A DNA stretch of 64,000 bases from Euglena gracilis (Eukaryota). The first letter of the stretch is position 1; every line of letters starts with the position of its first letter. The translations under genes were made by a program, and so were the position numbers. Positions 1 to 41,541 of this stretch are shown here, piece by piece. Below the pieces are notes generated by a model. It was not told where the DNA came from. It was given only the letters and a program-made list of their open reading frames with translations, and searched no databases. Location of the stretch: contig CP154954.1 of NCBI GenBank assembly GCA_039621445.1, positions 15,518,140 to 15,582,139 on the forward strand, in the 5' to 3' direction.

Positions 1-13371
<13,371 letters not shown>

Positions 13372-14689
13372 GGAGGGTCTGCCCCTCAGCCCGCCCCCAC
13401 CACAGAGACTCCCCTCTATCAGGCTTCTGCAGGCCGGGACCGCTCGCGCACAAAGCAAGACACACACGCACACACACACACACACACACATACAGACAGA
13501 CACGCGCGCACGCACACAACACACACAGCACTCACAACACACACAACACATAGCACACACAACACACACATACGCAGCACACGCACGTCTAATTCATATG
13601 GGCAGTGTCTGTGACTTGCCTGTGGAGACCTGCCAAAGGGCAAGCAAATGGAGAAGGGATTTGTTGTTCATGCCCCCCATCGTGGTCTCCGGAATTAGTT
13701 AACCCCTTTATGACCTCGCTTCGGCTCTCCTGGGGTGGCAGTGCATCCAGGGTCTTCCTGGTCGCTTGGGTGGTTTATGAATCTATGGCGCGTCCTTTGG
13801 AACAGCGCCCTTCCTCCACCCCCCCCCCCAAGGGGCTACCTGCAACGCACACGGTCTCTTCCAGACCCCCCCCCGCCGCACGCGAATGTGTGGCCGGCCC
13901 TCCCCCTCGTTTCGAAACCAGAGGCCTGGCTCTCAGCTGCCACACTGTCTGGCGTGGGCCCCCTGCGCCGCCCTCTCTCCGTTGGGGACCTCAGGAGGCC
14001 CAGCCCTCCCCCTCGCCGCAAACCCCGTTGGCTGGGCTGCCACCCGGTTGGGGGGGCCGATTGCGCGGGGGGGGGGGGGGGTCCGGATCGCCCAGCCCCG
14101 CCCGAGACGAACGTTGCCTGACACAGCGGTTGGCTTCGCAACACCGCTTTGCGTTGGTGTTGTGTCGAAGCAAGCCCTGTCCAAGCACCAGCACCAGGCA
14201 CTTGGACGGGGCCTTTGTTTATATATTACCTCTGGTTCTTGGCCCGTATTTTGGCGCAAGCGACACCCCCCGGTTCTTTCCCATCTTTTCCAGTTCTTAA
14301 ACAAGGGGGAGGTACGTGGTATTCCCTTTCTCCAGTGGTGGCATCCATTCTCCTGTGGTGGAGGGCAAGCACCTCCAGCCGCAAATCTCGACAATCCTCC
14401 CCCCCCATTCGAGATGCACACATCGCTGCTGTTCCCTGGCCCATTTCCCTCTGCCCTACCCTGCCCACCCCACAGACACCTCTGCTGCCATTGTCGTCAC
14501 ACCAATGCCATGCCATCAGAGCCCCTCCAAACGTTCAAACGGACAACGGAATGGAAAAGAGCGAGTGTAAAAGCCCTTAGACAACGTCACAGAACTCGAA
14601 AGGAAGGCGTGCTGTCTACAGTTCAAGTCCAAAAGTTGACCATGCCGTGGAAGGCAATGGGCAGAAACCCAACGCAGCAAAACACACTC

Positions 14690-14718
14690 AACCACGCGCA
14701 CAACCACACACACCCACC

Positions 14719-14749
<31 letters not shown>

Positions 14750-14806
14750 ACACACACACACACACGCACGCACGCGCGCACGCGCGCGCACACACACACA
14801 CACGCA

Positions 14807-14881
<75 letters not shown>
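14690..14881. repeat. (CA)n/(CG)n microsatellite
   Basis: Directly visible; similar tracts at 9440-9570 and 13455-13590. Confidence 0.95.
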
Positions 14882-14884
<3 letters not shown>

Positions 14885-17800
14885 CTGTTTGGAATGGCAA
14901 AATCTCCCAAAGTGTTTTGGGGGCAGCGGGTTCTCCATCGAGGCACCTTTGCGAGAGTCGCCATATCAGAATGAAAGGATGCGTGGAAAAACGCCGGCCT
15001 GTGTATTTAACACAAGTATTCCGCGCATTCATCCCACATTGGGGCGTCTACTGCACAGGGGCGACTGTGTGATTGGTTTTTCAAGCGTGGCCGTGCGGGA
15101 CATTTCGGGAACGGTCGACTCCCCTGAGGTGGCACAGAGCAGAATTTTTGGGCTTTTGAGTGTTGGAAAAAGGTCCATGGTGCGATTAGAGAGTGTGTTT
15201 TGTCAAAAACAATAATCAGGGGTGGTCAGAGGCAGAGTGGGTGGTCCCATGCTGATATCCTCTGGATGAGAGGCAGTGGTTTGTTTTGTGGTCTGCCGGG
15301 GAGGATACCCCCCCCATTCTCCCTGCAAAGCGCCACGTTTTTTTGGCGTCCCTGGCCCCCGAGGGGGTGGGAGGGGGGGCGGGTGCTGTACCGTGAGGAT
15401 GGCTTCATTCCGTCGTCCGTGGGCCGCCTGGTGCCGTGCGACCGGAGTCCTACCCCGGTCTCGTGCCAGGATGCCACCTCCCCGTGCCGTGTGCAGCAAC
15501 TCCCGCGTGACTGACCGGGCTGCCTTGTGGCCCGGATGTGTTCCCGCGGGGCAGGCGGCGCAGGCCGCCCCGCCGTGGCGTTGCTGTTGCCCGCGGCGTT
15601 CCCGTTAGCGCATGGGTCGGATTTGCGAAAATCGGAAATCTCCATATTCTGCGTTGAATGGGAGTTCAGCAAACAAGACCATTTTGACCTTTTTGATCTT
15701 TTTGGGGGGAAAATGTCGGGTTAGTAAATTTTCCACGTGGAACATTGACACAATGCGCCAAAGAAAATTTTGGGCAACTCAGAATTTTGTTTTACTTTCC
15801 TGGGACAAATCTTGGATGGATGCTTAGAACACCTGGAAAAAATCTATTTATTCAACAGCGTTTCCTCTCGTCCAGGTTTCTTCCCCCTCCCAGTGCCCTG
15901 CCTTGATTCCAACATTGGGAAGACCACAACTGGCGAAGCAAGGCATTGCATCGAGATTCATTCTTGGTAAATCGTTGGATGTATCTTAAGGCAGCACCTA
16001 AATTTTTCTCACCAGTCTACCTACCCCCCCACCCCCTCCAGGAAACTGTCACTTGCCAGGTTGGCCAGTGCCACGGACACTGACAGGTTCTCAGACATGA
16101 CAGTTTCACGTGGGAGGGGAGTAATAGTCGTGGGAAGAACACTGTTCATAAATATCTCGCGGAACCATTTTCTCAAGGATGCTCCAACTCCGGAGTGCTT
16201 TAGGCCAGCCAATGTGCTTCCAAAACATATATCTGCTCGCCGAAGGTTGAGTCTGGAGATTCCTGAGCTCATTCCTCCCCCCAGCACCCACCCACCCACT
16301 TACCAACCTGCCACTGACCCACCATTTTTGGGGTGTGAGGGCTTGCCTGCTACTCGAATATGGTCCGAAATCGCCCCTGCTGGGTTCAAATTCAAGTGTC
16401 CAGCTCCCCCCACCCACCGCTTTCCGCTGCCACACCCGCCTCCCGTGCCGTTGATTTGCATCCCTCTTTGCCCCCGCCCTTTTCCTTGACAACCTCCGCC
16501 CCCTCCCGAAACCGCTCCCTCTGACCTCCCCCTGACTTGCCATCCCCCCACCCAATACCTGTCTTTGGTTTCAGTGCCTGGCCTTCCGGCGGCTGTGCTT
16601 GTTTGGCCATTTGGCGCTACAGTGCCGTGTGATGCAATTTGAACCCCCCATGGGGCTTTGTCTTTCCTGGCGTGCTGGAGCATGTGGATAGTCATGGGTC
16701 TGATGTGCAGAGTCGCTGACGCCAGAGCTCCCGCGAGGGATGTCCAGCTGCTTATTCACCTCCAACTTTTGATTCCTGATGCTTTCTTATTTTTGTTTAC
16801 TGTTTTATTTTTGATAATATTTTTTTGCCTTTTAAGTGGGTCAACGTGGGCCAAGAATGGGCAGATTTTGCATGGAAGATTTTTTTGTTACCGTGTATTT
16901 CTTTTTGGTTGGTTCACACCAAACCCAGCCCATGCCACCTGAGACCAGGACTGTACGAGAATTCCTGAAGTCCCATAAGTGGTGGGTTCGGGGTGGAGGG
17001 AGTCAGACAAATATTGGCCAAAAAAGTGACCAATAATTGCATGATTTGCTGTTTTATAAACATTTTTGCAGTTTTCATTTTTTCGGTACCCAATTCCATT
17101 CTAGGTCGGGCCCAGTTCCAGCCCAGGAACCCTATGGGGGGGGCAGGAGTTGGCCAGCAGCCTTTTCTCGGATCCAAAAATTTCCAGCCTCTAAGCTGGA
17201 CCGGCCCCCCAACCCTGGGGTTATCAACACCCCGCCTAGGGTCTGTCAAGCAACGTTTTGATTGCTTTGATCTGATGCCTTTCATTTGGGCGACCAAAGT
17301 TGCCGTCAACTGCTAGCTTTTACGTGGTGTCGCCCAATGTGCATGCACATTTTCACCACGTTACTCACCAGTCAAGGTTCAATAGCTTAAAAAAGAGGAT
17401 CTCAGGAATCGGTTTGGTTTGGATCTCGTCAAGCATTCACAGAATGGCATTATGTGCGGGTTGAATCCCCAATTATTAAAGAATGAGCTAGAACACCCAC
17501 CAAAATGACTGTGGTTTTACATGTTGTGGATTTGGTAATGCCCATGGATTCACTTAACACCATGTGACGGTACTTCCTGGGGGGTTTGTGAGTGAAAGGG
17601 TGGTCTGGGCCTTTGGATCCCCCCAGGGGAGGTAACCCCCCCCCCCCCGGGGCTGTTGGTGCCAACTTGGCCAAGACCACCGACCTGGGCAGCAGTGGCG
17701 GGGGGGGGAGGGGGGCTTCTTGTCCCCACCCCAATGGATCGGCTCTTTGATGTGCCCCAAGGTGGTCCTCCGCCATTCCGCCTGCGCCTCACCACCGGGA

Positions 17801-27199: not shown

Positions 27200-30100
27200 A
27201 AGTTACAAGCACCATACATTTATACCCCCTGTCCAGGGTATTTTGGCACTGCTTCCAGTGCCGTTATGAATTAATGACTCAAAAGGGCTTTCAGGCCAGA
27301 CCATTCCGGCTGCGCACACTCTGGGAGTGACGTCCTGCTTCTTTTGCCGGCTTGTTGTGTCGTTGTTTTTTGGCGGGTTCTTTCTTACTGCTTTTTGTTG
27401 CCGGAGTTGGCGGATCATAATCGTCCTTCGAGCGCCAAAAAGAGTTTCACAATGCTGTATTTACTATCTGGAGACAAAGCAAAGTGACACCTCGGGCTCC
27501 GCACTTTGCCCTTGTGAGGCCATGCCTTGCTCGCCGGCGAAAAAAGGTCACACACACAAGGTCTTTGTGCTTCGCCCTCGGTGTCCCTTCCTCCCTTGTC
27601 GGTTTTCCTCGAGGGAGCACGAACAGCAGTGCATTGCGCATTTTCTTGCTGCTGTTTGAGAAAAGCGAGAGAGCTGGAGAGTGTGCCTTCAGGCTGGCCG
27701 CGACGTGGACATACGCTGCTGGAAGGCGCCACCGCCGAGACGCAGGGGAAGCAGAAGGCCGCGACAAGCGCTGCGATGGCAGAGGACGACGAGGAGGACG
27801 AGGAGTAGGGGGCGGCGGAGACAACAGCTGAGCGGCTCCCCTGGCAAGAGGATCTGACCCTACTTCCCCAGGAGTTGTCGGCCTGCCTCAAGCAGGCGGC
27901 GGTAGGTACAAGATTACGCTGGAAACACGCCCTGAACGAGTGGCCGAAATTCGAGGACATAAAAACGCGAGCTGAGGACAACAACCACAACCAGGACACC
28001 ACGGCCCCCATTGACAAGACGCTCAAAGGGGTACAACAAAAGGTAATCCATTTGATGAGGATGATGGCCACCAACTACAGTCAAGTGGATGCATTCCCAG
28101 AGGACTATCGAGTCCTCTCCCAGCAACTCTTCTTCGCCATGGCGGAGTTAGAACTAGGCCTTCTATGAGAACGGAAGCATCGAAGTATATCTGGAGCAAA
28201 TGTTCTTTTTCAAAAAAGATCTCCAGGTGGAGAGGACTCAGAGCAGCTGCACAGTGCTGGTATGAACACACCAGTGGGTAGGGTGGAATGGTGGCAATTT
28301 ACCACACCCACAGGAAGCCGAGGCTGGAAATTGAAAGGAGGATTTAAGTGGTTCAAAGGAGGATTCAAGGGTGGAACAGGAGGCTATGGCAGCCAAGTCT
28401 AGAGAAGTCCCTGGACATCCAAAGGGTATGACACACAGTGAAGTCTCATTCTTCCCTCCTGGTCCATTACAGAACAAAGGGCAGAGGGAAGCCCTGACAT
28501 CCAGGCCCCTGGAGGGGGTACAATTCAGCCCCCAGTTTGGGGTGAACAGAAGTCAAGCCACCCTGCTGGGGAAGGAGCAAGATGCTCCTACCCCACGTTC
28601 AACATCAACCAGCCCCAACCAGGAGGCCCAAGGCCCCAACCTGCAGCAGCAGCCAGGGGAGTGGGAGAAAAGGATGCTAAAGATTATCCTGAGTTAGGAA
28701 GATATATGGAAGGGGTCCCGTCTCTTTCAGAGGTTGGGGGGATGTCTCCCCTTGTGGAAAACCCATGCTCACCCCAAAGTGTTGCAAATGGTTCACTTTC
28801 TACCTACCCCAGCAAAAGAACAAGCCAGAAATTTCATTGGCCACACAAATTTTGGAGGATTGACAAAAATTCAAGAGCTATCAGAGTAGTGACAGATCCA
28901 CAAAAAAACACCAAACATCTGGTGACATGGTTTGTGTTGCCCAAACCGGAAGGGGGGGGGTGAAACATCGTGTCATTGCAGACCGAAGGTAACTCAATCT
29001 TTATTGTTCCCCAGACAGGTTTACCCTGGAAAAATATCCACCATTTTTCCCCTCCTCATGCAACGTTGGTATGCTTCAAAGCTGGATCTCAAGGATGCTT
29101 ACTTCCACCTGGACGTTCAAGAAAAGTTCAAACTATTTGTAAGGATGGAGGTAGGAGGAAAACTGTGGGAGTTTCAAGGTGCGTCTTTTGGTCTAGGCAC
29201 TCTCCCAAAACTTTTCATGTCCCTCATGAAAGTACTCCAAAAATTTTGGAGATCAAAGGGGCTCATGGCCTTCGTTTATTTGGACGAACATCATCCTAAG
29301 TGGTTCCTCAGAATGTTGGGTAAAAAAGCAAATGGCCAAAATCTTTGTTCTGCAGGTTTCTAAATAAAGCTCAAGAAATCCATTCTCTCCCCCACTCAAA
29401 AGCTGCAGCACCTGGGGTTCATCATCAATCTGCAGGAGGGGCTTCAGTGGGACAGTCTCCCCCTTTTTTACAAAAGCTTTTACATTGTTTACTGCAACAG
29501 CCAATTCCTTTACATTTATGCGGAGCAAACTTTGCTCCCTCCAAAAATCTTGAATGAACAACTTTTTTGTGCTTTCCACTCCACACCAGGCCCATGTTGA
29601 TGAACTTGAGTGCAGCACATGTTTGGGTATTTTTAAAAAGGGTCGACCTGCCGCTGGCACCAGAAAATCTTTTAGGTTCTTGATTTCCATTTTCAGCTGG
29701 GGGGTATTGGTACTGGACTCATGGCGGTGTTTAACTTGCTCAGTTTTAGTAATTCTTGTGTGACCAGCCTGAAAAAAGGACGGGCAGGGGTGTATGATCG
29801 CATATGCCCTACGACTTTCCTTAGTTCCTTTCTGATGATTATCAATTTTCCGGCAGACACCTGAACGTGGACAATCAGGTATCACTCATCTGCCTGCAGA
29901 AATGGGAATGAAGGAAAGAGCACCTAAACAGAATTTTACACCCCCTTTCAAGTGGTTCTTGGAAAACAAACTTGAACTCCAAGTCCCAGTGGGTCCCCTC
30001 AGAAAAAATGGTGGCAGACCTCCTTGACAAGGTGCTCACAAGACAGGGGGGATTATACCCTAAACCCCATTATCTTTCAGAAAAATTGCAGATTTTTTCA

Positions 30101-30727
30101 AGAACACATCACCCCCTCAGTGGAAATGTTTGCATCCACAGAACACACTAAGTTCTCAAAATTTTGCTCCAGATGCACCCACCACCAGGCCTTTCTGCTG
30201 GATGATCTGAACTGCAACCTGGATGGGGTGCGGGAGGTGTATGCAAACCCCCCCTGGAAGGCCATAATGCCCTGGATCACCAAACTTTCCATGAACAAAC
30301 AGGTAAAATGTCCTTTAATAACCCACATGTGGGTTTCAAGTGCAGTGGATCCTATTAACAAAAATGTCCAAACCTGGGGTGAAAATGTTAGTGGTTCCTC
30401 CCTGCCAAGGGAAGTTCACAAACTGTTTGGGGGTAATCAATGCCTGGGCCAAAATAGTCCCTGGCCTGCAGCATTGTTTCAGGTTCCGTTTTGAACAGCA
30501 AAAAAATGTGAAATTCACAAATTGACATTATCTTAAAAAGTACCTCCACATTAATGAGGTATGTCAGAGCCCTCAGAAAATTGTACGTGCTGCTGCAGGA
30601 AAAGGGTCTGGACCCCCTGCAAGTAACCACTTTGGACATTGTGTCCAGCATCCTGGAGCTGCACAAGATGTCGAGTGCTGAGGCCAGAAACGCTTTTTTT
30701 GCTGTCACATCTCTCCCTGGTTTCTAC
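27200..30727 (+). mobile_element. Decayed DIRS-like (tyrosine-recombinase) retrotransposon
   Basis: Gag-like region ~27650-28400; RT LDLKDAYFH...FGLGTLPKLF...VYLDE (29040-29290); RNase H motifs (INVKEL on the minus strand; VDNQV and ADLL on the plus strand); MTase EMFAS...YANPPW (30050-30350); helical region like a recombinase N-terminus (30530-30725), then truncated. Many frameshifts; 5' end approximate. Confidence 0.88.
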
Positions 30728-31655
30728 CATGTCGGGCGGTGGGCTGTCCACGGGGTGACGCTAGTCCAGGCGTCTGGCGGAGAAGGACAGAGAGAGGAAG
30801 CACGGTGACGGTGAGTGACCCCCGTCACGGAAGTCCGACTCCACGGAGGCGCCGCGGAGGAGAGGCAGGGCGGCGTTGTTGGCCAGGATGAGGTCGATCC
30901 AGGGGGCAGCCACCTGGCCGGACAGCTGCGGGGAGTGGAAGGTCACCGGGAGGGGCTCGGGAAGGAGTGCTGCATGGGCATTAGTCCACGGGGCTCCGGC
31001 ACCCGTGAGGTTGGCCAGCAGGGGGCAGGTGGTACGCTGGCGACCGCTGCGACTGCTGTAATCTCGGGAGGGCAGCACGGAGCCGTTCCAGTCCCCCAGC
31101 AGCAGTGTGGGTACCTGCATGTCGATGGATTGGGAGAGTTCGCGGAAGGCGAGGTCGAAGCTGACGTGCTCCCCACCGCCTGCCTACGAGTTCGTGAAGG
31201 TGGTGCACCTTCGTGGCACTCTCGCCGAGCTGCACTGGCTGGAGCGCCAGACTGCCCGCCCGCCCTCCACCGTCCCATGGCCCTGGCCATGGGTCCGCTT
31301 GCTGGATTACCTCGCCGCCCGCGGGGTCCATCTCCCCCGTACGACCGTCCCTGCCCTCCACAGCGCCATCTCTGCAGCGTCCGCCTCCCGCCGCTCCGCC
31401 CTGGACAGCGCCCTCCAATCCCACCGCCGCGCCCGCCATACCCGGTGGCGGGACGCTCTCCCCCAGCTGTGGCATGAGCGCCCCGCAGTGATCTTCCGCT
31501 GGCTCAAAGCGGAAGCACCTCCCTTTGGCGCTCGGCCAATCCTCGACGCCTCCGGCTACCATTGCATGACCCATGCCGCCGTCCTTCTGGGTGGATAGTG
31601 TACTATGGCCCTGCGGCACCACCCTCTGTCCTCGGCTGACGCGGTACACTTCCTG
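30728..31655. mobile_element. APE-type LINE fragment with inverted 5' part
   Basis: Minus strand 31120-30761 reads LLLGDWN...IDLILAN (APE endonuclease motifs); plus strand 31125-31650 reads an ORF2-like linker (RWRDALPQLWHERPAVIFRWL). Confidence 0.75.
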
Positions 31656-32227
31656 GAGCTGGGGTATCCACGGCCAGCCAGATACCGGCGAGACCCCCTC
31701 CTCCTCTTTTTTCCACCAGCCACCAGCCAGACCTCCTCCTCCCCATTTCGCCCATCCACCAGCCAAGGATAGCCGTGGCTGGCCGCAGCTGGGGATCCTC
31801 CCCCTTTTTTGTGCCTACCGGAGAGTGCCAAAAATAAAAGTAAGGCAAAAGTCACCACGGCGCCACCTCGGTGTTTATTATTACGCTCGACGGCTGCGCT
31901 CGCCAGGTTTAATCGCAGCATCCATGCCGGCGGATGTGTCAACGGCGAACAGAAGGAACCGCGGTCATTGGTACTGGAAGTGCTTCTCTGCCGGGATAAC
32001 ACAGTAAGACGAGACTATTTTCACGTTGGACAAACATTTTTAGGAACTTATTTCACGGCAGCACCATGACCACGCCGGAAGAAGGCGAGCAGAGAAAAAA
32101 CAACCGGGCGGCACAGAAAAGCCCCCCAAACAACACAACTTATGCCAAAAAAAACACAAACAAAACGCCTTTCCAACAGAATCCCAAAGAAGTCCTTCCT
32201 GAGAGAAGCCTGTGGCCCAAAACTGGC

Positions 32228-32405
32228 CATCTATCTGCTTTGCGGACGATGCCGCCCTCATCGGCGGCTACCGGGAGGAGCTCGCCGCGCTGGTGTCCGC
32301 CTATCTCGAGTGGAGCACCCTGCTGGGGGTCGAGGTGACCAAATCCAGGTGTGGACTTCCCTGGGGGATGGCACGCCCTTCCAGGCAGGCTCGTTCTCCA
32401 CAGCT
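32228..32405 (+). pseudogene. Non-LTR reverse transcriptase fragment
   Basis: ICFADDAALIG...YLEWSTLLGVEV, an FADD catalytic motif followed by the GxxV segment. Confidence 0.7.
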
Positions 32406-32409
32406 TCCC

Positions 32410-32552
32410 TGCCACCACATCTGGCCCAAAACTGGCCACCACATCTGTCCCAAAACTAGCCACCACATCTGTCCCAAAACTGGCCATGAGCTGTGGCCCA
32501 AAACTGGCCACTACATCTGGCCCAAAACTGGCCACCACATCTGGCCCAAAAT
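32410..32552. repeat. 24-bp tandem repeat (TGGCCCAAAACTGGCCACCACATC), about 6 copies
   Basis: Directly visible; one further copy at ~32213 before the RT fragment. Confidence 0.9.
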
Positions 32553-33229
32553 GGCAACAAGATGTAAATCAAACCAATGAAAAGAAAATCAGAATGAACC
32601 AGAATACCATGACATTGCAAAAAAAAGTGAAATGCAAGATTTTGGGGCCCAAAATTTGCATTTCACTTTTTTTGCAAAATTTGGGCCGTTTGCCAGATTG
32701 AAAAACTTTTTCCCCAAATTTTGGTTTCCTTGGGCAATAAAATTTGTTGAACAAGAAGTAAAGAAAGCAAGAAACAAAAATAAGCCAGCATCTAGGGATA
32801 CAATGTCTGTGAAATCTGCCTTCAGACTTGAAACTTGTAATCCCACAGCCAGTAGCTTAAAAAGTAGCCTCACCAAGGGCCTGTCACCATGTTGCTGGAT
32901 CGAGTGTGGATTTTTTCAGAGCAAAGGCCTGAGTGGACTGTATGTGGTGATACTAAGCCTCTTTCCACAACACAATAAGTTCCAATACGTTCCTGTATTT
33001 CCACTTCATTTCAGCACCCTGTGCTTTCATCACAATTGTCCCACACCGCTTCCACTCGAAATGGCATTGCGACACTGAAGGAGGCGAACCGATTCCACCG
33101 ACCAGTGGCACAGCCTACTGGATTTGAGTGTTCAGGGGAGTCGGAGACTATGTACAGATGCGGCAACCCCATGGAAAGACCGAGGTGACATGTCTGCGAG
33201 AGGACAACGGGCGAGAACCATCTTCCATG

Positions 33230-36200
33230 CAAGGCGCGGGGGGAGGGCAGGGCGGTGCTTCACAGTGTCTGGATTGGTCGTCAGCGGGAGTGGGAGAGGG
33301 GGGCGGGCGGTTGGTTGTTGTCTTTCTTTCTTCTCTTCTTTCTTTCTCTCGTCTTCGTTTCTTCTTCTCTTTTTTTGTTTTGTTTTGTTTTAACGCATTA
33401 GGTGCTTGGGTTGTAGGAGGTGGAAAACCTCACGTAGCAGGGCGATGGCTACGTTCTGGTAGATTTCCGCCTCCTTGACTTCGCGCTCAGCGCCCTGTTG
33501 CCAGGGTGAGGCACGGTTGGCCACTCTGCTCAGTGTCTTGGCCGTTTCGGGACCCATGCCGCCCCATGTCCCTAGGGCGAACAGCGTGAAGCCCCACCCT
33601 GCTTGCTTGCAGGGGATGGTGTATTTCTGCTTTTTGGCCTCCTCCCTTCTCTTCAGGAAGGGTCTCCAGCGTTCGCGGGTTGCAGTGTGTTCTGTGGCCT
33701 GCCAGCCGTGGCAGACGGTGACGTCCAGAGCTGTTGGCTTCCCCTCAGACCAGCAGTCAAGTAGGAGGTCCGCCGGGCGGAGGTGACTGTCTCGGGCCGT
33801 CGGCAGAGAAACTTCCTTCTGCACCCGCTGACCGCTGTTGGACAAGGTTTGAAATAGTGCGTCCTGTACAGTGTTGTGGCGGGTTGCGAAGTTGTTCCTC
33901 CGGCAGCAGAGGAGGTGGTCACCCTCCCTGTCCAGGGGTTGGCCGCAGCCTGTGCACGGTTGGCTGATGTCCGTCAACACCGGGAGGCCCAACCACCATT
34001 TTAGTCCCAGGGTATAGACTTCACTGGAGAAGGTGGTGTGAGAGTTGTTCGAGGGGGCGGCCGCCATCCAGCCGTGTTCAAAACCCGTGGCCTGTTCGAG
34101 CAAGCGGTTCTGGTCCCGGGGCCGTGCCTGGTCCACCAGGTCGTCCATTTCCTTTTTGTCCAGCTCATGGTTCCACCACTTTTGTTTCCGAGGTTCTTCG
34201 TCCGCGGACGCGATTCATTGTGGATTGTTCAGGAAGGTGGTCACGGTGGCATGGTTGGCTCCGAGCCTGCCCCTGAGGTCATCTAATACGGGCGTGACAA
34301 GGGATAGCTGCGGGCTGACTGCGTAGTCGGGCACTCCCACCCGCCGGGCCCCGTCTGAGTAGAAGTCTGCGAGGCAGGAAATCCTTGCCGCGGGTTGAGT
34401 GTACGACGGTATGCGGAGGCTGCAGCCGCCACTGGACAGGGGCAGCGAGGCCTGTGTCCGCTGTTGCGAGTTTAGCGCCGTGCCCAGTACGTCCTCGAAG
34501 GCGTTCAGGATCACTTCCGAGCAGCTTCTCACCTGGTCTTGGCTGCCATAGGAGTTGGACGCACGTAGGAGGTGCTTCACCTTGCAGCCGTCCAGGCAGC
34601 CCCGAAGCAGATGATGCGCTACCTGGGCGTCGGTCAGGGAAGTCATTGTGGAAGCAGCCTTCTCGATTTTGGCGGCCGCGTCTTCACACGCAGTCTTGGT
34701 GGCGTCTGAAAATGCTGGGTGGTTAACTGGGATACCGAGGATAGTAATGCCTTCCCCTGGTGTCCAAGGGACAACTTGCAATCTGTCGCAGCTGGGTGTA
34801 CTCTTTGCTCGCGGGCCCCACATGACGCATTTTTGCAGGTTCAGGCCAAGACCTACCCGGTGGGACTCTTGCAGCAGGAATCGTAGACAGTGTTCAATCA
34901 TGTCCGGGGTGCCGACCAATTGGCCGTCGTCCAGGTACCAGCTGTTCCCCAGTAGCTGGCCGTCCCTCGTAATCTGTTCTAGTAGGGGCTGTAGCGCCAG
35001 GGCAAACCCAATGGGGCCCAGAGGACAGCCTTGGTGTGTCCCCCTTTGTGATAGGATTGACCGGCCGCCGCAAAAGAGGGGTACAGGTCCGCTGTAGGCA
35101 AACCTCAGAAAATTGAACAGGCTGGGGGTGCGTGTCTCAGCCTCTGTGAGGATCGCTCCGCGGTCCACTGTGTTAAAAGCGTTGGAGTAATCCACCTGGA
35201 GTGATACCCAGGGCGAGGTGTCCCCCAGCCGACTGACGAGGTGTTGCATGCCAGGGCGACGGCTTCAGCCGCGTTTCGTACCCCTACTTCGACCTGTGTG
35301 GGGCGAGTGTTGCGACCTCCGATCGTGCATTTGGCGTCTGGAGCAGCGCCTTTCCGACCAGGCGTCGAATGGTCTCCCCCACCGCCACCGGCCGCACCCC
35401 GTTGTCCTTCTTGTGAAGGGGTGTCAGGTTTGCGCAGCACCAGGCCGCAGGGTGGTGCGGAGGTAGCTGGCCGTGAACCCAGACCTGGGTCAGCCGTGCA
35501 AGGGCTGTGATCAGCTTCGCTCCCCGGCCCGGTCTACGCAGACAGTCTTGGAGGTGGCTGGGCCGTAAACCTGACGGTCCTGGTTCGGAACCGCGCGGAA
35601 GCGGCAGATGGCGTCCTTCAGTCTGTCCACCCATTCCGGGTTGTGGTTCTCTGGGAATGGTCGCACTTGCCGTGGGTGGCGGTTGGTATCGACATTTCTG
35701 CCGTCAGGATGCAACTTCTCCAGGGCGGCCCAGCCCTCCGGGTAGTCCGGCTGATGTGCGCCCTCGGAGAGCAGTATCTAGACCGCCTTGGCGGACGCCC
35801 CTTCGCCGGTGAGGGTGCGTACAAGTCTCATCATTGCCTCACTGAGGGCGGACGGCTGAGGTCTGGAGCGCTTCTCCGCCCTGGTTTCCAAGATAGAGTG
35901 TCGTGTCAGCGTGTCCTTCAGTGCCTCCGACAGGAGGGTGGCGTAATATTCCTCGCGGAAAAGTTTGGTGCGCCTCAGCAGGATGGACTTCAGCTCAGCT
36001 GCCGGTGGCGGCGTAGTGGTTGCTGCTGGTCGCAGGACGAGCTTTGGGAAGGAGATTACCCTGAACAATGCTGCGTCTGAGGGTGCGTCGGCATAGGTAT
36101 TGATGGCATCAGCCAGGGTGTCGAAGACAGGTTGTTGGCAGGCCGCAGGTAGGTGAAGGAGGGTCGGGATTTTTTGCTGTTGGACGTGGGTGATGTCGCA

Positions 36201-38000
36201 AGCGGGGGTGCCCACGACGAGGATGTGCGCGGACTGTCCTCTGAGACTGGACTCCTGCCCCGCGCTGTCGATGACCACTGCGGCGTCGCGTTCTGGGTGA
36301 GCAAGGTCCAACAACAGGTCCTGGTACCGTGAAGTTGCCACATCCGGTGCGGCACGGGGTGACGCGGTGGCTGGTCTGGGGTTCTCCTTCACGTCCCCAC
36401 ATGTGAGGAGGCTTCCACGTCCGCGGTTTGCCCCTCTTGTGCGGACGTCACCTGTGGGTGGACTGCGGCGGCAATGCCTACCCAGCCCGACGTTCGGGGA
36501 GTGCGTGTTGTGCCTGCACTACCCCCCGCCCGAGGAACCGGATGACGCCACAGTATCACCGTCCACGCCCCGCCCAAATCCCGTATATCAGGGCCACGGA
36601 TCTGCCGCCCCCCGAGGAATGGGTCGCCCTTGACTGCGCCAAAGGATCCTTCCGGCTCGTTCCGTTCGCCTCACGCCTCTTCCTAATGCGCAACGGGCAC
36701 CTGTGGGACATTCGCCTACCGCCACCAGAGCAGTGCCCACATTGTGGCCAAAATCACTGGCCGTGAGATTGCCACACCCTCATCCGCCTGATTGGCCCGC
36801 TCCAACGTGCCCAATCAGGCCCGCCTGCTTTTCAGAATACGAGTGGGGTAAGCCCCAAAACCCCCTGCCAGGGTAGAGGAGATCTGCTCTCTAGCGGAGA
36901 CGTCCTCAGTCACCCTCGGCCAGCACAACACTCCAAACCAGGCATTCCCCATGTGGACCATGAAGGTGGTTCCAAAAGGAGCTTCCCCTGGGCGCGATAT
37001 AATGGAGTTCCAGTCGGCAATTGAAACGCGGTTCCTGCCATCAGCAGGAGATGTTGCAGTTCTGGCCGCGCGGATGGACACAGGAGAAGGACATGTCCCC
37101 CTTCTGTCTTGTGTTTGTTCAGAATCTTGGGTATCAGGTGCCACGGCGGGTTCATCCACACCGGGTCTTTCCGATTCCAGTCCTGTTGCAGCGCATCTGT
37201 GCTCATGTCCCAGTAGCGAGGGTAATGTGTGTTGTGTGCTGCCGCGAAGGCGTCAATCTCGGGTTCCAGTTCTGGGCTCAGCCTTTGGACAACTTTCCGT
37301 TGCCATGGGGCGTCCAGCATGTAGTCTCCGTCAACCGAAGGGAGTCTGGCCCCGGATCCTCCTCCACACAGCCCCCTGCGGTTGCCGTCCCCCGTCCAAG
37401 CGACTCAAAATCCTCCGCTTCCTTTAGGAACTGTGTTGTGCATACGAAATAGTGTTGATCCAGTGTTTTGGTTTGCTGAGCAGTAGGCGATGGCAGAGTC
37501 CACAACGCACCCTGAAGTGCCCGATCGTACGGTCTTTTTGGAAGAGGAAACGTTGTTCCCGATTGCACCATATCGTGAAGCGTGAGAGTTCCTTCCGTCT
37601 TTTCCTGAGATGGAAAAGCACCGTTTTAGGTGGTTCCGCCCTTCCTTGTATTCTCTTGGTTCGCCTCTCTGGGGGGGTTGCCTCTGGGGTGCGCGCACTG
37701 GCGGGATACTCTTCACCGGTCTATGAGTCCGTCTACTGCCAGTAGGAGGGTGAGAGGAGCTGACCGCCAAAACCGATGGGGATGCTAATGTGGAGAGGGT
37801 CAGCCCACTTCCTGGGAAAATATTTCCATAGGGGGGGGAGGGTTAGCGTTCGGTTCGGCGCGATTCTTCTTTTCGGCCTGGTGGTGGTTGGCCGGTGGCC
37901 TTCTTCCGGGGGGGGGGGGGGCGGTGTGCACTGTGTGCCCATTTCCCTGAGGTCTGTCACTGTGGGGCTTTGTGGTGGTGGTTTGGGCCTTGGGTGTCCC
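33230..38000 (-). mobile_element. CRE/SLACS-like non-LTR retrotransposon (RT plus restriction-like endonuclease), frameshifted
   Basis: LTPLHKKDNGVRPVAVGETIRRLVGK; DYSNAFN; GTHQGCPLGP; WYLDDG; CTGC...DHLLCC; RHN; LRPAD; ALDVT; K..KY; GTWGGMG; stop at 33390. The 5' limit is approximate. Confidence 0.92.
36910..37330 (-). pseudogene. N6-adenine DNA methyltransferase domain (DIRS/phage Dam-like)
   Basis: DYML...EIDAFAAAHN...YW...DALQQDW...VWMNPPWHLIPKILNK...VLLLCP; motif order parallels the DIRS MTase at 30050-30350. Confidence 0.82.
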
Positions 38001-38319
38001 CACGTCGGGTGGGCTGTGGTGGCGGCTTGATATATGCTGGGGTCTCCCTGGTACCCCCCTGTGGGTGGTCTCTGTGAGCAACCTCTTGGGCTGCCCCCGC
38101 CCCCCGAGGATTAAGATCCCCGGTACGGGTGCTGGTGGGAGGGGTGGGGGTTGGAAGGGCTTTGGGGAACATTTGGAGAACTTCAAATCCAAACATCTCC
38201 CCATGTGTTCCCACTTCTGTTTTTTTTCTGTGAGTTTTTGCCTTAAAATGTCCCCCAGGGGTCTGACCCATGGTGTTGACCATCGTTTTTGTCTTAATTT
38301 TCAAAAAAATTCCAGTGTC

Positions 38320-39140
38320 CCCTTTTGGGGGCTTCCCTCTCTGGAGGGGGGGGGGGGCTCCTGGGAACCAACTGTGAAATCAGCTGACTTCATGATTTCA
38401 TCCCCCAGGGTGTTGTAAGTGGGGGTTGGAAGTTTGAAGATGGAACTTTTTTGGTGCTTACTGATGGGGTGTTTTTTTAATTTGGGAGCAAGGCAAACAG
38501 ATACCACTGTGGAGAGAATATGGGCTAGGCTTGTTCCAGTTACTCCCAGATCTTCAGTCACTTCTGCAGCAAAACATTCAGGGCCTGCAAGGTCTGCAGC
38601 AATTGCTGCTCCTCTTGTTGATTCTGGTTGCTGTGATTCTGTTTGCTTTGAAAAAAACTGTTCCAGATTTGCTGAGTGGGGCAAGGTGTGGTATATCATT
38701 GGCAGGGGGGGGGCACACTTGAGGTGCTTGTGGATTTCTGCTTGGGTTGGGATTCGAACCTGAGCTTGGGGCCACTGGTGCCCATTGATTCATGACCATT
38801 GTTGGTCTTGATTCAGGGGCCTGGGCCCATTGATGCTGGGGCCCTGGGGCCACTATGCTGCTGGATGCTGCTGCTGTGTGCAGGACATTCGGACGTCTCC
38901 TTTGCCAGGGTTGTACATGCTTGTCACCCCAGCGCTGCTTCAGCCAGTCTTCATGGCTTTGACTTTCTTGCCAACTTCTGGCTCTCTTCTCAGCTGGTCT
39001 GGGTCTGGGTGGCGGTGTCGGGTCAGTCTGCAGTTTGGCAACTACTACTGCGGCGGTCAGGGCGGGAAGCAACTCGTCTAACAACTTCTTCTGCATGTCG
39101 GGGACTTCGGGACTGCTGGCAGTGGGCTTGTTCCCGACAC
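38320..39140 (-). pseudogene. ORF-like remnant inside the TIR element, unknown product
   Basis: CTCCTTCAG acceptor at ~39141, then overlapping ORFs 39096-38578 and 38699-38301; no recognisable motif. Confidence 0.3.
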
Positions 39141-39359
39141 TGAAGGAGAAGGATTAGGAACGCAAGCAATTTTTTTTGTATATGGGTGAATCATAATTTT
39201 TTGATAAATTACATCGCGGCCAGCCAGACCAGCCTCAAAGCTGAATCAAGCCAAACCTCCTCCTCCTCTAAAACCCCTCAGCCAGCCGTGGCTGGTCATG
39301 GCTGGCCAGACGTCCTCCTTTTTTTTGCCACTTAGCCAGCCGCGGCTAGCCGAGCTCCC

Positions 39360-41266
39360 CAGCTCCCCTGAGCCGCCTTCACGTGGCGTTGGCCGAGCGC
39401 CTCCCCGAGCTGCTCAGCCGCCGTTACACCCTCGTGCTGGCGGATCCCTCACCCGGGCCTGCCCCCCCCCCCAGCCCATCGGCTCCCTGCCTCCATCGTC
39501 CATGCCCGCTCCCCGCCTCACGCCAGCCCACCCTCCCCACCCTCCGCTGGTGGGAGATCTCCGAAATTGCAGCCCCCCGCCCCCCTCCAGGCCTCGCACC
39601 TACCTCGCCGCATGGCGAAACCCGTCGGCTGTGGCTGCGCCCCCGCCTCGACGAGCTCCTTCGCGATGAGATGTGGCCTGCCCGGCCGCCTCCGGCTGCT
39701 CAGCAGTCGCCGTCCTGGCCCTCTCCGACTCCACCACCGGATAGCCCTTCACCGCCTCCCCTGGAACACTGGTCAAGGACCGTGTGTCGGTTGTGGCCCG
39801 CGTGCTGAGCAACTTGCTGGCCGAGTCTGCCCCGTGCCCCCAAGGCCTCGCTCGACGCGGACCGGTGGAGACGCCACACCCAGGCCCGCGAGGCCCCCCA
39901 CCCCCGCAGCCGCCCTCAACCACCGGATGACCTCTGCACCTCCACCTTCGTCTCGTGGATCCGCGATCACCGCTCCCTCACCCCCATCCGTACCCCCGGA
40001 CCGGTGCGAGTGCAGCATGGCCCTGTTGCTGCTGTGGGAGATCGACCACGACCGCACCCTTCCCCTCCACCGGCGCCATCCTGTCGGGCTTCACCCGCCG
40101 CCTCCAGACCCGCGTGCGGCAGACCCCCGACCTGGACTTCTTCCACAAGGAGTTCTTCCACAAGGACGTCTACCTCCCCCTCGCCCGGGGACTCCCGTGC
40201 TCCCACCACGTTCGCTGGTCGGTGCAGGTGGTGGAGCACACAGTCGGAGCGGGCGCCGCATGGTACGCGCCGGAGCACCACGTACATAAACGGTGCACGC
40301 CGGTTATATCCGCACACTGCCTCACGAACTGTATAAATCAAAAAAATTCTTTCTCAGGATCCCCTTCATAAGTATGGCACTGGGAGGGGGGTATATCTGT
40401 CCTGGGGGGGTGTTGTGGGGCGACCCTAGGACCGGCCCACGGTCGCCAATGGTCGCTAAAGGTCGCCGTGGTCGCCAAAGGTCGATGTCAAAAACTGTGC
40501 TCCAGGGCAAATTTTCGCAACTTACACACAAAACGAGTTACACACACAAGGGTTTTTGTTATTTTAGGGCCGCCGAACAGTTGCCTACGGCGCTACAATG
40601 CAAAAAAGACTGAGTAGGAAATACCCATAGCGACCTTTGGTGTCCGTGGGCCGACCCTAGGGTCGGCCCACAACCCCCCCCCCCCCCAGGTCAGATCCGG
40701 GTGCCGCAGTAGGAAGTTGCCGACTGGTCGGTGGGAATCGTCCTGCTCAACTGGAATGGGAACATTTTTTTTCTCCAATCCACCACAATGTGCGATTCGT
40801 GGAACATTGGCAGCTGTACCTCCGCAGCTTGCTGGCCCCCGCCCTCCCACCGGTGACCCCGGAAGCCCCGATGTCCTTGCTCATCCCGGCGCCATCGTCA
40901 TCGCCCCCTCCATACCTAGCGTCCGGGACCGTGACAGTGCCGGCCGTCTCAGCGAATGCCCCCGCACCGGCAGATGCAGACCCTGCCAGCCTGCACGACC
41001 CATCCGCGCGGCAGCATCGTGCAGCCCCAAAACGTCGTGCGGTCTCCTCCGAACGCCGGCCTCCAACCCCGGCTCTCTCCGGCCATCGACCGCCTATCTC
41101 TCACAGCCCCCTAGCCGCGGATGTCAACTCCTCAGCACGTCGCCCCGCCCCGCTGCCGGCCAACCCACCCCCTTGGAAGAAGCATGCCACCTTGGCCGAC
41201 TGGATGCAGCACGCTCGTCCCCGGCCGCCTCCCCATGGGCGTGCCACGGAGGGCCCGACTACCTAG
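39360..41266 (+). mobile_element. Probable C-terminal part of LINE ORF2, interrupted by a MITE
   Basis: Frameshifted GC-rich coding-like segments ending ...PPPHGRATEGPTT*; lies directly beyond the right TIR in the same orientation as the LINE part at 31125-31655. Confidence 0.4.
40378..40710. mobile_element. MITE (GACCCTAGGGTC family)
   Basis: Inverted ends; a related copy lies in the opposite orientation at ~46800-47598. Confidence 0.8.
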
Positions 41267-41541
41267 CCCGGTGTGTAGGGGCGCGGGAATCGCCTCGTGG
41301 GTTCGCGCCTGGGCCGTTGAGCCCACTCAGCGCCCGGTGATGGACAGCTCCATCGCCAACCGAGCCCCCTCCCCGCTCTGTGGACCCGAGACCAAGTGCA
41401 ATGGAAAGGTTCCAGCCCAGGAGTGCAACCAGTCCACAGGGTGGGAGGAGTTCCGAAGGAATAAGCGTCTTTCTTGACTGCTTCGGGGGAATGGGCCAGG
41501 ATGGTCGAACTCTGATGTCCACCCTCCTCAATATCAAGTAC

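Follow-up and report, generated by a model that had tools for sequence, protein, structure and literature searches.

Does a lineage of retrotransposons that lack long terminal repeats (non-LTR elements) encode an adenine methyltransferase of its own, or do the methyltransferase and reverse transcriptase (RT) frames that lie close together in one stretch of the Euglena gracilis genome belong to separate insertions? The locus that raises this question lies in 64,000 nucleotides of contig CP154954.1 (assembly GCA_039621445.1, positions 15,518,140 to 15,582,139), hereafter the window, whose DNA is eukaryotic and full of mobile-element debris; positions given below are those of the window. On its minus strand, between 37.7 and 33.3 kb, lies what is very probably a nearly full-length copy, now dead, of a non-LTR retrotransposon with a restriction-like endonuclease (RLE), whose Dam-like methyltransferase (MT) is an inherited module of the lineage and no neighbour. 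Along that strand the copy reads leader, 2A-like motif, MT, inverted spacer with a second 2A-like motif, third 2A-like motif, N-terminal extension, RT, CCHC motif, RLE and A-rich tail. An earlier note on this DNA, made from its letters, had proposed a retrotransposon lineage that acquired an adenine methyltransferase, and sequence comparisons support this at the level of the lineage, where seven protein clusters and a clade of related MTs indicate that the module belongs to the element family. The three 2A-like peptides, the internal inverted segment and two in-frame stops go beyond what that note had described.

Relatives with a single polyprotein

A search of longer proteins seeded with the RT returned 33 long relatives, three of which carry both RVT_1 and Dam by precomputed Pfam annotation, hmmscan adding P0008. 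Searching with the MT part of P0005, one of these relatives, yielded P0190 (1736 amino acids, aa), P0191 (2053 aa) and P0192 (991 aa), whose RTs are 35-39% identical to that of the window. Grouped at 90% identity, seven clusters (P0005, P0006, P0008, P0021, P0049, P0190 and P0191; 11 proteins when the members P0183, P0184, P0186 and P0187 are counted) have the full order of Dam, small Cys-rich domain, one or more 2A peptides, RT and RLE in a single frame of 1273-2053 aa. The earlier note had looked to other copies for a methyltransferase, zinc knuckle, RT and RLE joined in one open reading frame (ORF), and these seven single-frame clusters provide it. The frames of P0005 (1294 aa), P0006 (1273 aa), P0008 (1601 aa) and P0021 (1481 aa) are uninterrupted, each running from Dam through one to four canonical 2A motifs and an N-terminal extension to RT and RLE. 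P0190 and P0191 read 2A, 2A, MT, 2A, RT, RLE, and P0192 reads 2A, MT, 2A and stops inside the RT; with P0038, P0044, P0064/P0189 and P0079, the last makes up five further clusters that run from MT into RT until the sequence ends. Clusters P0006 and P0008 have two and four full-length open-frame members (1273-1810 aa) on separate contigs, and the relatives' frames are open under the standard genetic code. An intact polyprotein of this family comprises, in this order, a short leader and/or small Cys-rich domain, 2A, Dam-like MT, one or more 2A peptides, N-terminal extension, RT, CCHC motif and RLE.

Fusions created by metagenome assembly or gene calling could in principle give rise to such polyproteins. 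All of them come from short contigs (3.1-8.2 kb), and the N-termini of P0007 and P0187 include doubtful low-complexity sequence. However, the order is retained within a single open frame by seven clusters whose RT identities go as low as 30-35%, canonical 2A motifs stand in frame at the joints, the MT and RT trees described below agree in pairing P0006 with P0008 and in placing P0049 outside the window's subclade, and the window itself has the same order in an independent assembly. We consider an artefact of this kind most improbable.

The small Cys-rich module recurs between 2A peptides in P0008/P0187, P0021, P0009, P0079, P0044 and P0049, either before or after the MT; it has the pattern ...C-x2-C...H-x-C (e.g. 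TCRWCKKVLFVRSAAPLIGHQC), matches no Pfam family, and may replace an ORF1-type nucleic-acid-binding protein. Other accessory modules of these elements are an N-terminal PHD finger in the distant RT-RLE relative P0029 (E 4.1e-5) and a precomputed PF15247 match beside RVT_1 in P0191. In P0034 (483 aa) the spacer domain comes after two tandem MT-like stretches, residues 11-101 and 176-302, each of which matches the MT of the window. In P0091 (719 aa), Dam (residues 74-126) and a C5 cytosine DNA methylase (362-461) occur in one protein, which resembles the dual-methylase 'EpiLTR' elements presented in the text of a recent preprint (10.64898/2026.05.21.726589).

The methyltransferase domain

The MT lies in a minus-strand frame (37404-36910) that is open for 164 codons, with a predicted Dam-like adenine-N6 methyltransferase core at 37320-36943 that is supported by Pfam, by alignment with P0005, and by a structural model and its fold matches. 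A methyltransferase with an IDAFA...NPPW signature had been read at 37330-36910 in the earlier note, and this is borne out: the frame matches Pfam PF05869 (Dam) with E 2.6e-9 and 37.4 bits against a cut-off of 28.1, the match covering only profile positions 30-77 of 169, and both motifs fall inside that range (IDAFA 37257-37243; NPPW 37152-37141). The domain is 42% identical to P0005 residues 1-122. Across 60 aligned relatives the Asn of NPP is invariant and both Pro residues nearly so, and the Asp, Phe and Ala of DxFA and two Trp residues are likewise invariant or nearly invariant; NPPW of the window aligns with NPPY of the bacterial-type protein P0180. A catalytic Asn-Pro-Pro followed by an aromatic residue has been described for eukaryotic Dam in the text of the same preprint (10.64898/2026.05.21.726589).

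Searched with HMMER against 1.84 billion representative proteins, the MT frame matches 498 at E<=1e-3 and 66 at E<=1e-10, which is beyond chance, with P0005 and P0006 among the seven best. Within the best 150 of the 498, 43 have 2A motifs and nine run on into the RT family of the window. A word search of the MT frame against longer proteins gave 382 candidates, none significant, and a scan of metagenome loci with a small MT alignment gave 10 loci (27-33% identity over 66-96 residues) that are probably unrelated Dam genes. In the Protein Atlas, the RLE and MT frames match clusters of mixed taxa only, which do not point to a family.

Class of the element

The RT (35595-34218) has its motifs in two frames, 35703-35284 and 35264-34215 (RVT_1 E 1.9e-10), with GPSGLRP at 35580-35560, NAFN at 35183-35172 and YLDD at 34937-34926, and is 47-68% identical to the RTs of P0005, P0006 and P0021. 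It is followed by a frame (34214-33393) that holds a linker, the CCHC motif (33956-33903) and the RLE, with RHN (33881-33861), RPAD (33779-33759), DVTV (33728-33708) and a K (33635-33621); the columns that do not vary in the RLE region of the relatives (C, C, H, C, H, E, R, D and K) all occur in it. A family profile made from 20 relatives was searched against solved structures, in which LINEs, the long interspersed nuclear elements, are represented by R2 and LINE-1 only. Its best matches are R2 proteins (9nl3_A, E 8.8e-31; 9dou_A, 1.6e-30; 8gh6_A, 1.2e-15), followed by LINE-1 ORF2p (about 1e-12) and then group II intron RTs, and a second stretch of the profile, separate from the one that matches the RT, matches the RLE of R2 protein 9nl3_A (i-E 4.5e-5). 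Since P0005 on its own finds no solved structure at E<=1, the family is distant from R2.

The earlier note had also remarked on the lack of RNase H or recombinase beside the methyltransferase. This holds for the 35 frames of 85 aa or more on either strand of the flanks (30391-33475 and 36407-41337), none of which matches any Pfam family at E<=0.01; more widely, no Pfam family of apurinic/apyrimidinic endonuclease (APE), RNase H, integrase or recombinase occurs in the element frames, these flanking frames or 16 relatives, and there are no long direct repeats that could represent LTRs in 33000-39500. Given its R2-like RT and RLE and the absence of these other features, the element is an RLE-type non-LTR retrotransposon, with R2 the nearest among solved structures in a comparison whose LINE references were R2 and LINE-1 rather than CRE, NeSL, R4, Hero or Utopia. 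Members of the CRE clade (CRE1/2, SLACS, CZAR), to which the earlier note had likened the element, insert site-specifically into spliced-leader (SL) RNA genes. Rfam and tRNA scans of the window returned nothing, with no ribosomal RNA (rRNA), SL or small nuclear RNA (snRNA) gene at the insertion, and a dinoflagellate-type SL motif, which may not be that of the host, had no match with up to three mismatches.

Phylogenetic placement of the two modules

Our MT tree, from a careful IQ-TREE search of 126 rows that excluded the long-branched MT of a DIRS-like copy elsewhere in the window, contains a 51-row split (ultrafast bootstrap, UFBoot, 79; Shimodaira-Hasegawa-like approximate likelihood ratio test, SH-aLRT, 89) that includes the window MT and all nine rows linked to the RT family, together with 14 rows that bear no label and 27 of the 31 other rows flanked by 2A. 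All six rows from a Ty3-type, RT-RNase H, RT-downstream or C5-methylase context fall outside it. A Dam profile match and a phylogeny against the MTs of DIRS elements were among the checks proposed in the earlier note; the window MT matches the profile, and in the tree it groups with the 2A- and RLE-linked MTs. The first quick tree recovered the same large clade (SH-aLRT 91), with the window beside P0005 (SH-aLRT 94). In the RT tree (34 rows, quick search), the window RT belongs to a six-row clade with the MT-bearing P0005 (SH-aLRT 98), and MT-bearing rows are scattered across the tree as far as the distant P0049. This scatter points to an old association of MT and RT with later losses, for example in P0009.

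These placements bear on the possibility that the MT is a remnant of a DIRS-type or Ty3/Gypsy element beside a non-LTR insertion. DIRS elements normally include Dam, and 7 kb off, on the plus strand (28442-30494), there is a DIRS-like copy with RVT_1 at 28926-29363 (E 3.4e-6) and a weak Dam match at 29976-30494 (E 0.0033, below the Pfam cut-off); other Dam relatives occur in Ty3-type (P0143, P0176) and RT-RNase H (P0117, P0149) proteins. However, no RNase H, integrase or recombinase accompanies the MT in the flanking frames, the MT groups with 2A- and RLE-linked MTs and apart from the six rows of other context, the DIRS-like copy's own MT has no tblastn match to the MT at 37 kb at E<=0.01, and a 2A-like motif stands directly 5' of the MT with a P0005-like spacer 3' of it. 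This explanation is largely refuted and seems to us very improbable; an MT that belongs to a DIRS-type neighbour, one form of the separate element that the earlier note had said would overturn its view, is seen neither in the flanks nor in the tree. The MT of the DIRS-like copy has a very long branch, and was placed weakly beside the RT-RNase H-linked P0117 in the first quick tree.

Arrangement of the copy in the window

The copy begins with a probable 5' untranslated end of the repeat unit (37700-37572), whose approximate boundary is drawn from a drop in read depth and from relatives that show no homology upstream of about 37360. A leader peptide (37571-37347), translated from a Met codon at 37571-37569 within the frame 37625-37278, which is not the MT frame, ends in the degenerate 2A-like GRGTATAGGCVEEDPGP (37397-37347); a 2A peptide directly before the MT is also found in P0021, P0008, P0047 and P0058. 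After the MT comes a segment of about 0.37 kb on the opposite strand to the rest of the element (36566-36934, plus strand). It consists of a spacer, in which the small Cys-rich domain lies (CPHCGQNHWP, 36734-36763), and the degenerate 2A-like GRGDLLSSGDVLSHPRP (36872-36922), and is recognised from the mapping of P0005 to the plus strand and from that of the post-MT spacers of P0034, P0037, P0038 and P0168 (plus strand, 36560-36931). The minus strand resumes with the 2A-like motif GRGSLLTCGDVKENPRP (36422-36372, in a frame that runs from 36518), which aligns with the canonical NPGP motifs of P0005, P0006, P0008 and P0021 and in which Arg replaces the Gly of canonical 2A, and then with the conserved N-terminal extension of the RT protein (36371-35598), the RT, and the CCHC and RLE region. 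The reading frame closes with TAA (33392-33390), and an A-rich to GA-rich tail begins directly after the stop (33392-33310 with the stop included). The earlier note had placed the methyltransferase about 0.5 kb upstream of a frameshifted RT/RLE frame on the same strand, which agrees with our measurements: MT homology ends at 36943, about 0.43 kb before the next long frame at 36518, and the RT occupies two frames.

Protein-to-DNA mapping of P0005 summarises the arrangement. Residues 1-122 map to 37320-36952 on the minus strand, residues 172-286 to 36638-36934 on the plus strand (E 3.6e-9), and, again on the minus strand, residues 265-557 to 36422-35598 (a single frame through a TAG), 559-657 to 35595-35299, and 674-1293 to 35252-33396. 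P0005 is consequently colinear with the window over its full length, except for residues 123-171 and 658-673 and for the orientation of one segment, and the window holds every P0005-like part in order with the spacer and its 2A inverted. Self-comparison of the 64-kb window found no second copy of any part of the element.

One or two insertions

The inverted segment invites a second explanation, in which two members of the same family inserted next to each other, one giving the MT part (37571-36943), perhaps together with the inverted segment, and the other the 2A-RT-RLE part (36520-33390). Residues 265-286 of P0005 are matched by two 2A-bearing stretches that show no DNA similarity, sharing at best 9 nt with 44% protein identity over 39 residues, and the part that comprises the MT and the inverted segment may therefore not stem from the same RNA as the RT part. 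Moreover, depth in the DNA run X1 dips at both junctions, to 99-164 (36283-36596) and 112 (36911-37067) against 506 and 796 in adjacent bins, which suggests joints peculiar to this locus; a 223-nt X1 contig with zero differences (36844-37066) bridges the joint between MT and inverted segment, although X1 is possibly the window's own sample. Against two insertions stand the well-supported position of the window RT with P0005; the grouping of the window MT with P0005, which two trees out of three recover at uneven levels of support; the presence in P0021 and P0006 of two different 2A peptides in succession or close together; the fact that a simple inversion of the spacer and first 2A in an ancestor with two 2A peptides would give the observed order without duplication; and the way in which the three pieces, separated by no more than about 50 bp, jointly cover P0005 in order. 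We hold two insertions to be possible, but unlikely. Were it correct, the claim for the lineage would stand, and the locus alone would not show linkage. Twin priming was considered as the cause of the inversion and rejected, as the inverted piece has an MT segment in direct orientation on its 5' side and the stretches that overlap are unlike in DNA.

We prefer to read the copy as a single element with an inherited MT, and several observations, of which the dissimilar 2A-bearing stretches are one, weigh against this. Linkage of MT and RT in the host rests on one rearranged locus together with the depth profile, and all polyprotein relatives are metagenome proteins. No target-site duplication was found at the locus, where there are merely low-complexity matches of 7-10 nt. 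The 2A-like endings of the window (...DVKENPRP, ...DVLSHPRP and ...VEEDPGP) all depart from canonical D(V/I)ExNPGP; intact relatives have canonical endings, such as GDIESNPGP and GDVEANPGP, and by this comparison canonical 2A is a feature present in the family and lost in this copy. Support is weak at the deep nodes of the MT tree, with UFBoot 10 and SH-aLRT 40 for the smallest split that unites the window with all nine linked rows, and UFBoot 38 and SH-aLRT 97 for the window's 13-row group with P0005 and P0038; one interim quick tree put the window elsewhere inside the large clade. Further copies without the methyltransferase, which according to the earlier note would speak against a resident module, do exist in part: P0009 reads 2A, Cys-rich domain, 2A, RT, RLE with no MT, and P0007 has an RT near-identical to that of P0005 with different sequence upstream, whereas the seven clusters described above all carry the module. 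As regards activity, DIRS and LTR Dam proteins expressed in Dam-deficient Escherichia coli gave no rise in N6-methyladenine (6mA), according to the text of the preprint 10.64898/2026.05.21.726589.

State of the copy and abundance in the host

The copy is dead and cannot perform the functions proposed below. It carries two in-frame stops (TAG 35780-35778; TGA 34217-34215) and frame changes near 37345, 35600 and 35270, in addition to its three degenerate 2A motifs and inverted segment. An alternative genetic code seems an unlikely reason for the TAG and TGA, given the accompanying frame changes and the open frames of the relatives under the standard code. We aligned contigs of the DNA runs X1 and X2 to the window (33300-33398 being skipped as repeat), and the summed depths are not to be taken as copy number. 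One extra base follows 35250 in 4608 of 4608 X1 depth units and follows 37345 in 130.8 of 183, so that the frame changes near 35270 and 37345 are private to this copy.

Summed depth in X1 and X2 is about 47 and 78 in a flanking bin that resembles single-copy DNA, 588-796 and 1097-1511 over the MT, and 1868-15749 and 2571-39443 over RT and RLE (X1 without the low bins at 35655-35968). A depth that climbs towards the 3' end fits a LINE family with 5'-truncated copies, and the profile indicates that the MT segment is itself repeated and that the host has many similar copies of the family. At the 5' edge, X1 depth falls from 588 (37382-37538) to 231 (37539-37695) and 47 (37696-37852). Beyond this single-copy-like bin it rises again to 464 at 37853-38000, so that another repeat adjoins the 5' side of the element. 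Among RNA runs, X21 gave four reads only, at 95-99% likeness, within 33614-34084, and X24 gave none. On the sequence comparisons above the MT-RT association is an old one, and the family looks abundant in the host; its persistence across RTs that are 30-35% identical, together with this apparent abundance, suggests that selection keeps the module.

Predicted fold and possible function

An AlphaFold2 (AF2) model of the MT built on 60 relatives has a predicted local distance difference test (pLDDT) score of 86.7, reaching about 96 across residues 30-150, and has the features of a Class I methyltransferase fold. The top Foldseek match of the model is PCIF1, an RNA cap adenosine N6-methyltransferase (6irw_B, E 4.7e-5, template modelling score 0.53), followed by KsgA, Dim1 and Erm, a group that includes the rRNA adenine methyltransferases Erm and KsgA. 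A fold search independent of Foldseek likewise gave PCIF1 (Z 9.4), Erm (8.3-8.4), T4 Dam (8.2) and EcoDam (8.0). Only 107-109 positions align with T4 Dam and EcoDam, spread across chain residues 6-259 and 11-270 respectively, and the target-recognition part consequently appears to be absent. As modelled, the MT is a minimal adenine-N6 methyltransferase core, and we infer adenine methyltransferase activity and its substrate from motifs and fold.

Our proposal for intact elements is that one mRNA would be translated as a polyprotein, and that the ribosome would skip a peptide bond at the 2A sites, so that Cys-rich protein, MT and RT-RLE would be released separately, the MT of the P0005-like subfamily together with its Cys-rich tail. 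The MT might thereby fill the slot of the ORF1 product of other LINEs. RT-RLE would nick the target and copy the RNA, and the MT could methylate adenines on the nascent complementary DNA (cDNA), on the RNA:DNA hybrid or at the target site during target-primed reverse transcription, which could change how the host treats the new copy.

The module may be genuine and yet no longer methylate DNA, acting instead as an inert nucleic-acid-binding protein comparable to ORF1, or on RNA. The short domain (about 125 residues) without a target-recognition part would fit such a role, as would PCIF1 and then Erm and KsgA as best structural matches, and the accessible text of 10.64898/2026.05.21.726589 reports that eukaryotic Dam lacks CD-1 and TR-1, in addition to the negative result in E. 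coli. However, retention of Asn-Pro-Pro, DxFA and the two Trp residues across 60 relatives is hard to explain without catalysis, and the Z scores of PCIF1, Erm, T4 Dam and EcoDam differ by about 1.4 at most, so that the modelled fold leaves the choice among DNA, hybrid and RNA substrates undecided. We judge a loss of DNA methylation rather unlikely. We are similarly doubtful of a more specific version, in which the MT is an RNA or RNA:DNA-hybrid adenine methyltransferase that marks the element's own transcript (PCIF1-like cap-adjacent or internal N6-methyladenosine, m6A) or the hybrid, and is no writer of genomic 6mA. Such an enzyme could favour translation or stability, or shield the intermediate from the sensors of the host, and would explain why retrotransposon Dam proteins leave no 6mA on E. 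coli DNA.

Comparison with known systems

To our knowledge, retrotransposon-borne Dam was long known solely from DIRS elements, Goodwin and Poulter having reportedly described the Dam-like methyltransferase of the DIRS1 type. Two sources, in the portions of their texts available, treat this enzyme as prior knowledge (PMC5890265; 10.64898/2026.05.21.726589). The window MT resembles it in belonging to PF05869, in its short core with DxFA...NPP-aromatic motifs, and in being carried by a retrotransposon. The element nevertheless does not have the DIRS1 arrangement of RT, RNase H and MT with a tyrosine recombinase nearby: its MT stands between 2A peptides, N-terminal to an R2-like RT and RLE, and RNase H and recombinase are lacking.

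The preprint 10.64898/2026.05.21.726589 (May 2026) reports, in the text available, Dam in DIRS, Ty3/Gypsy and one hepadnavirus-like element. The text uses 'non-LTR' once, in its introduction, and mentions LINE-like RTs solely for Euglena 'DAM-LTRs', as possible chimeras. It attributes 30.9% and 21.3% of Dam-bearing transposable elements to LTR elements and 19.8% to DIRS, leaving about 28% unnamed in the text, and elements like the one described here may sit in its supplementary tables. For LTR elements it proposes a model in which 6mA on RNA-DNA intermediates recruits the host AMT1. The family described here is similar to DAM-LTR elements in that a eukaryotic retrotransposon Dam has been taken up by another class of retrotransposon (compare P0143, P0176 and P0091), and differs in that those are LTR elements with an integrase. 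A literature search found no description of a Dam-bearing non-LTR element in the texts it covered, among them the main text of 10.64898/2026.05.21.726589.

SymbioLINE-Dnmt provides another comparison, as a LINE with a DNA-methyltransferase-type gene upstream of the RT. According to the accessible text, this element combines an APE-type endonuclease (Exo_endo_phos) with a cytosine-C5 DNA methyltransferase (DNMT) that is encoded in a separate ORF1, and lacks poly-A (PMC5890265), whereas the window family encodes an adenine MT and an RLE in a single polyprotein with 2A peptides. The order of RT, CCHC motif and PD-(D/E)xK-type endonuclease is shared with R2 and other RLE-type elements. Unlike R2, 16 relatives have no N-terminal zinc-finger or Myb Pfam match (E<=0.01), apart from the PHD finger of P0029, and possess extra 2A-bounded modules. 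In non-LTR elements, 2A peptides are described in L1Tc/Ingi and APE-type clades (PMC3708506, text seen in part), and 2A together with deubiquitinase (DUB) modules ahead of ORF2p in a series that includes Dualen/RandI (PMC13405545, in whose accessible text 'methyltransferase' occurs 0 times). As in these cases, the 2A peptides of the present family lie N-terminal to the RT protein, and those in PMC13405545 also set off accessory domains. As far as these texts go, the known cases occur in APE-type or Dualen elements, whose modules are deubiquitinases or others; in the present family as many as three or four 2A sites link the Cys-rich domain, MT and RT-RLE.

Other sequences in the window

Across 22 long frames elsewhere in the window, Pfam identified only the RT of the DIRS-like copy. 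Endonuclease-like and RT-like strings were recognised by eye at 30764-31183 on the minus strand (...LLLGDWNG...) and at 32203-32580 on the plus strand (...FADDAALIG...), with no Pfam match at E<=0.01, suggesting fragments of another, APE-type LINE. At about 32300-32570 the translations of both strands contain a short tandem repeat (e.g. ...GPKLATTS..., about six times).

Meaning of the association

Non-LTR elements copy directly at the target site, without a free cDNA stage. In a family of this kind the substrate of the MT would consequently be narrowed to nascent cDNA or RNA:DNA hybrid at the nick, target DNA, or RNA, and the family would offer an uncluttered setting in which to ask why adenine methyltransferases are carried by mobile elements. 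If the association holds, non-LTR elements would be the third major class of retrotransposon with Dam, after DIRS and Ty3/Gypsy (the 2026 preprint). The 2A-bounded cassette polyprotein would also illustrate how a LINE may acquire additional proteins and express them from its single ORF, with no need of another.

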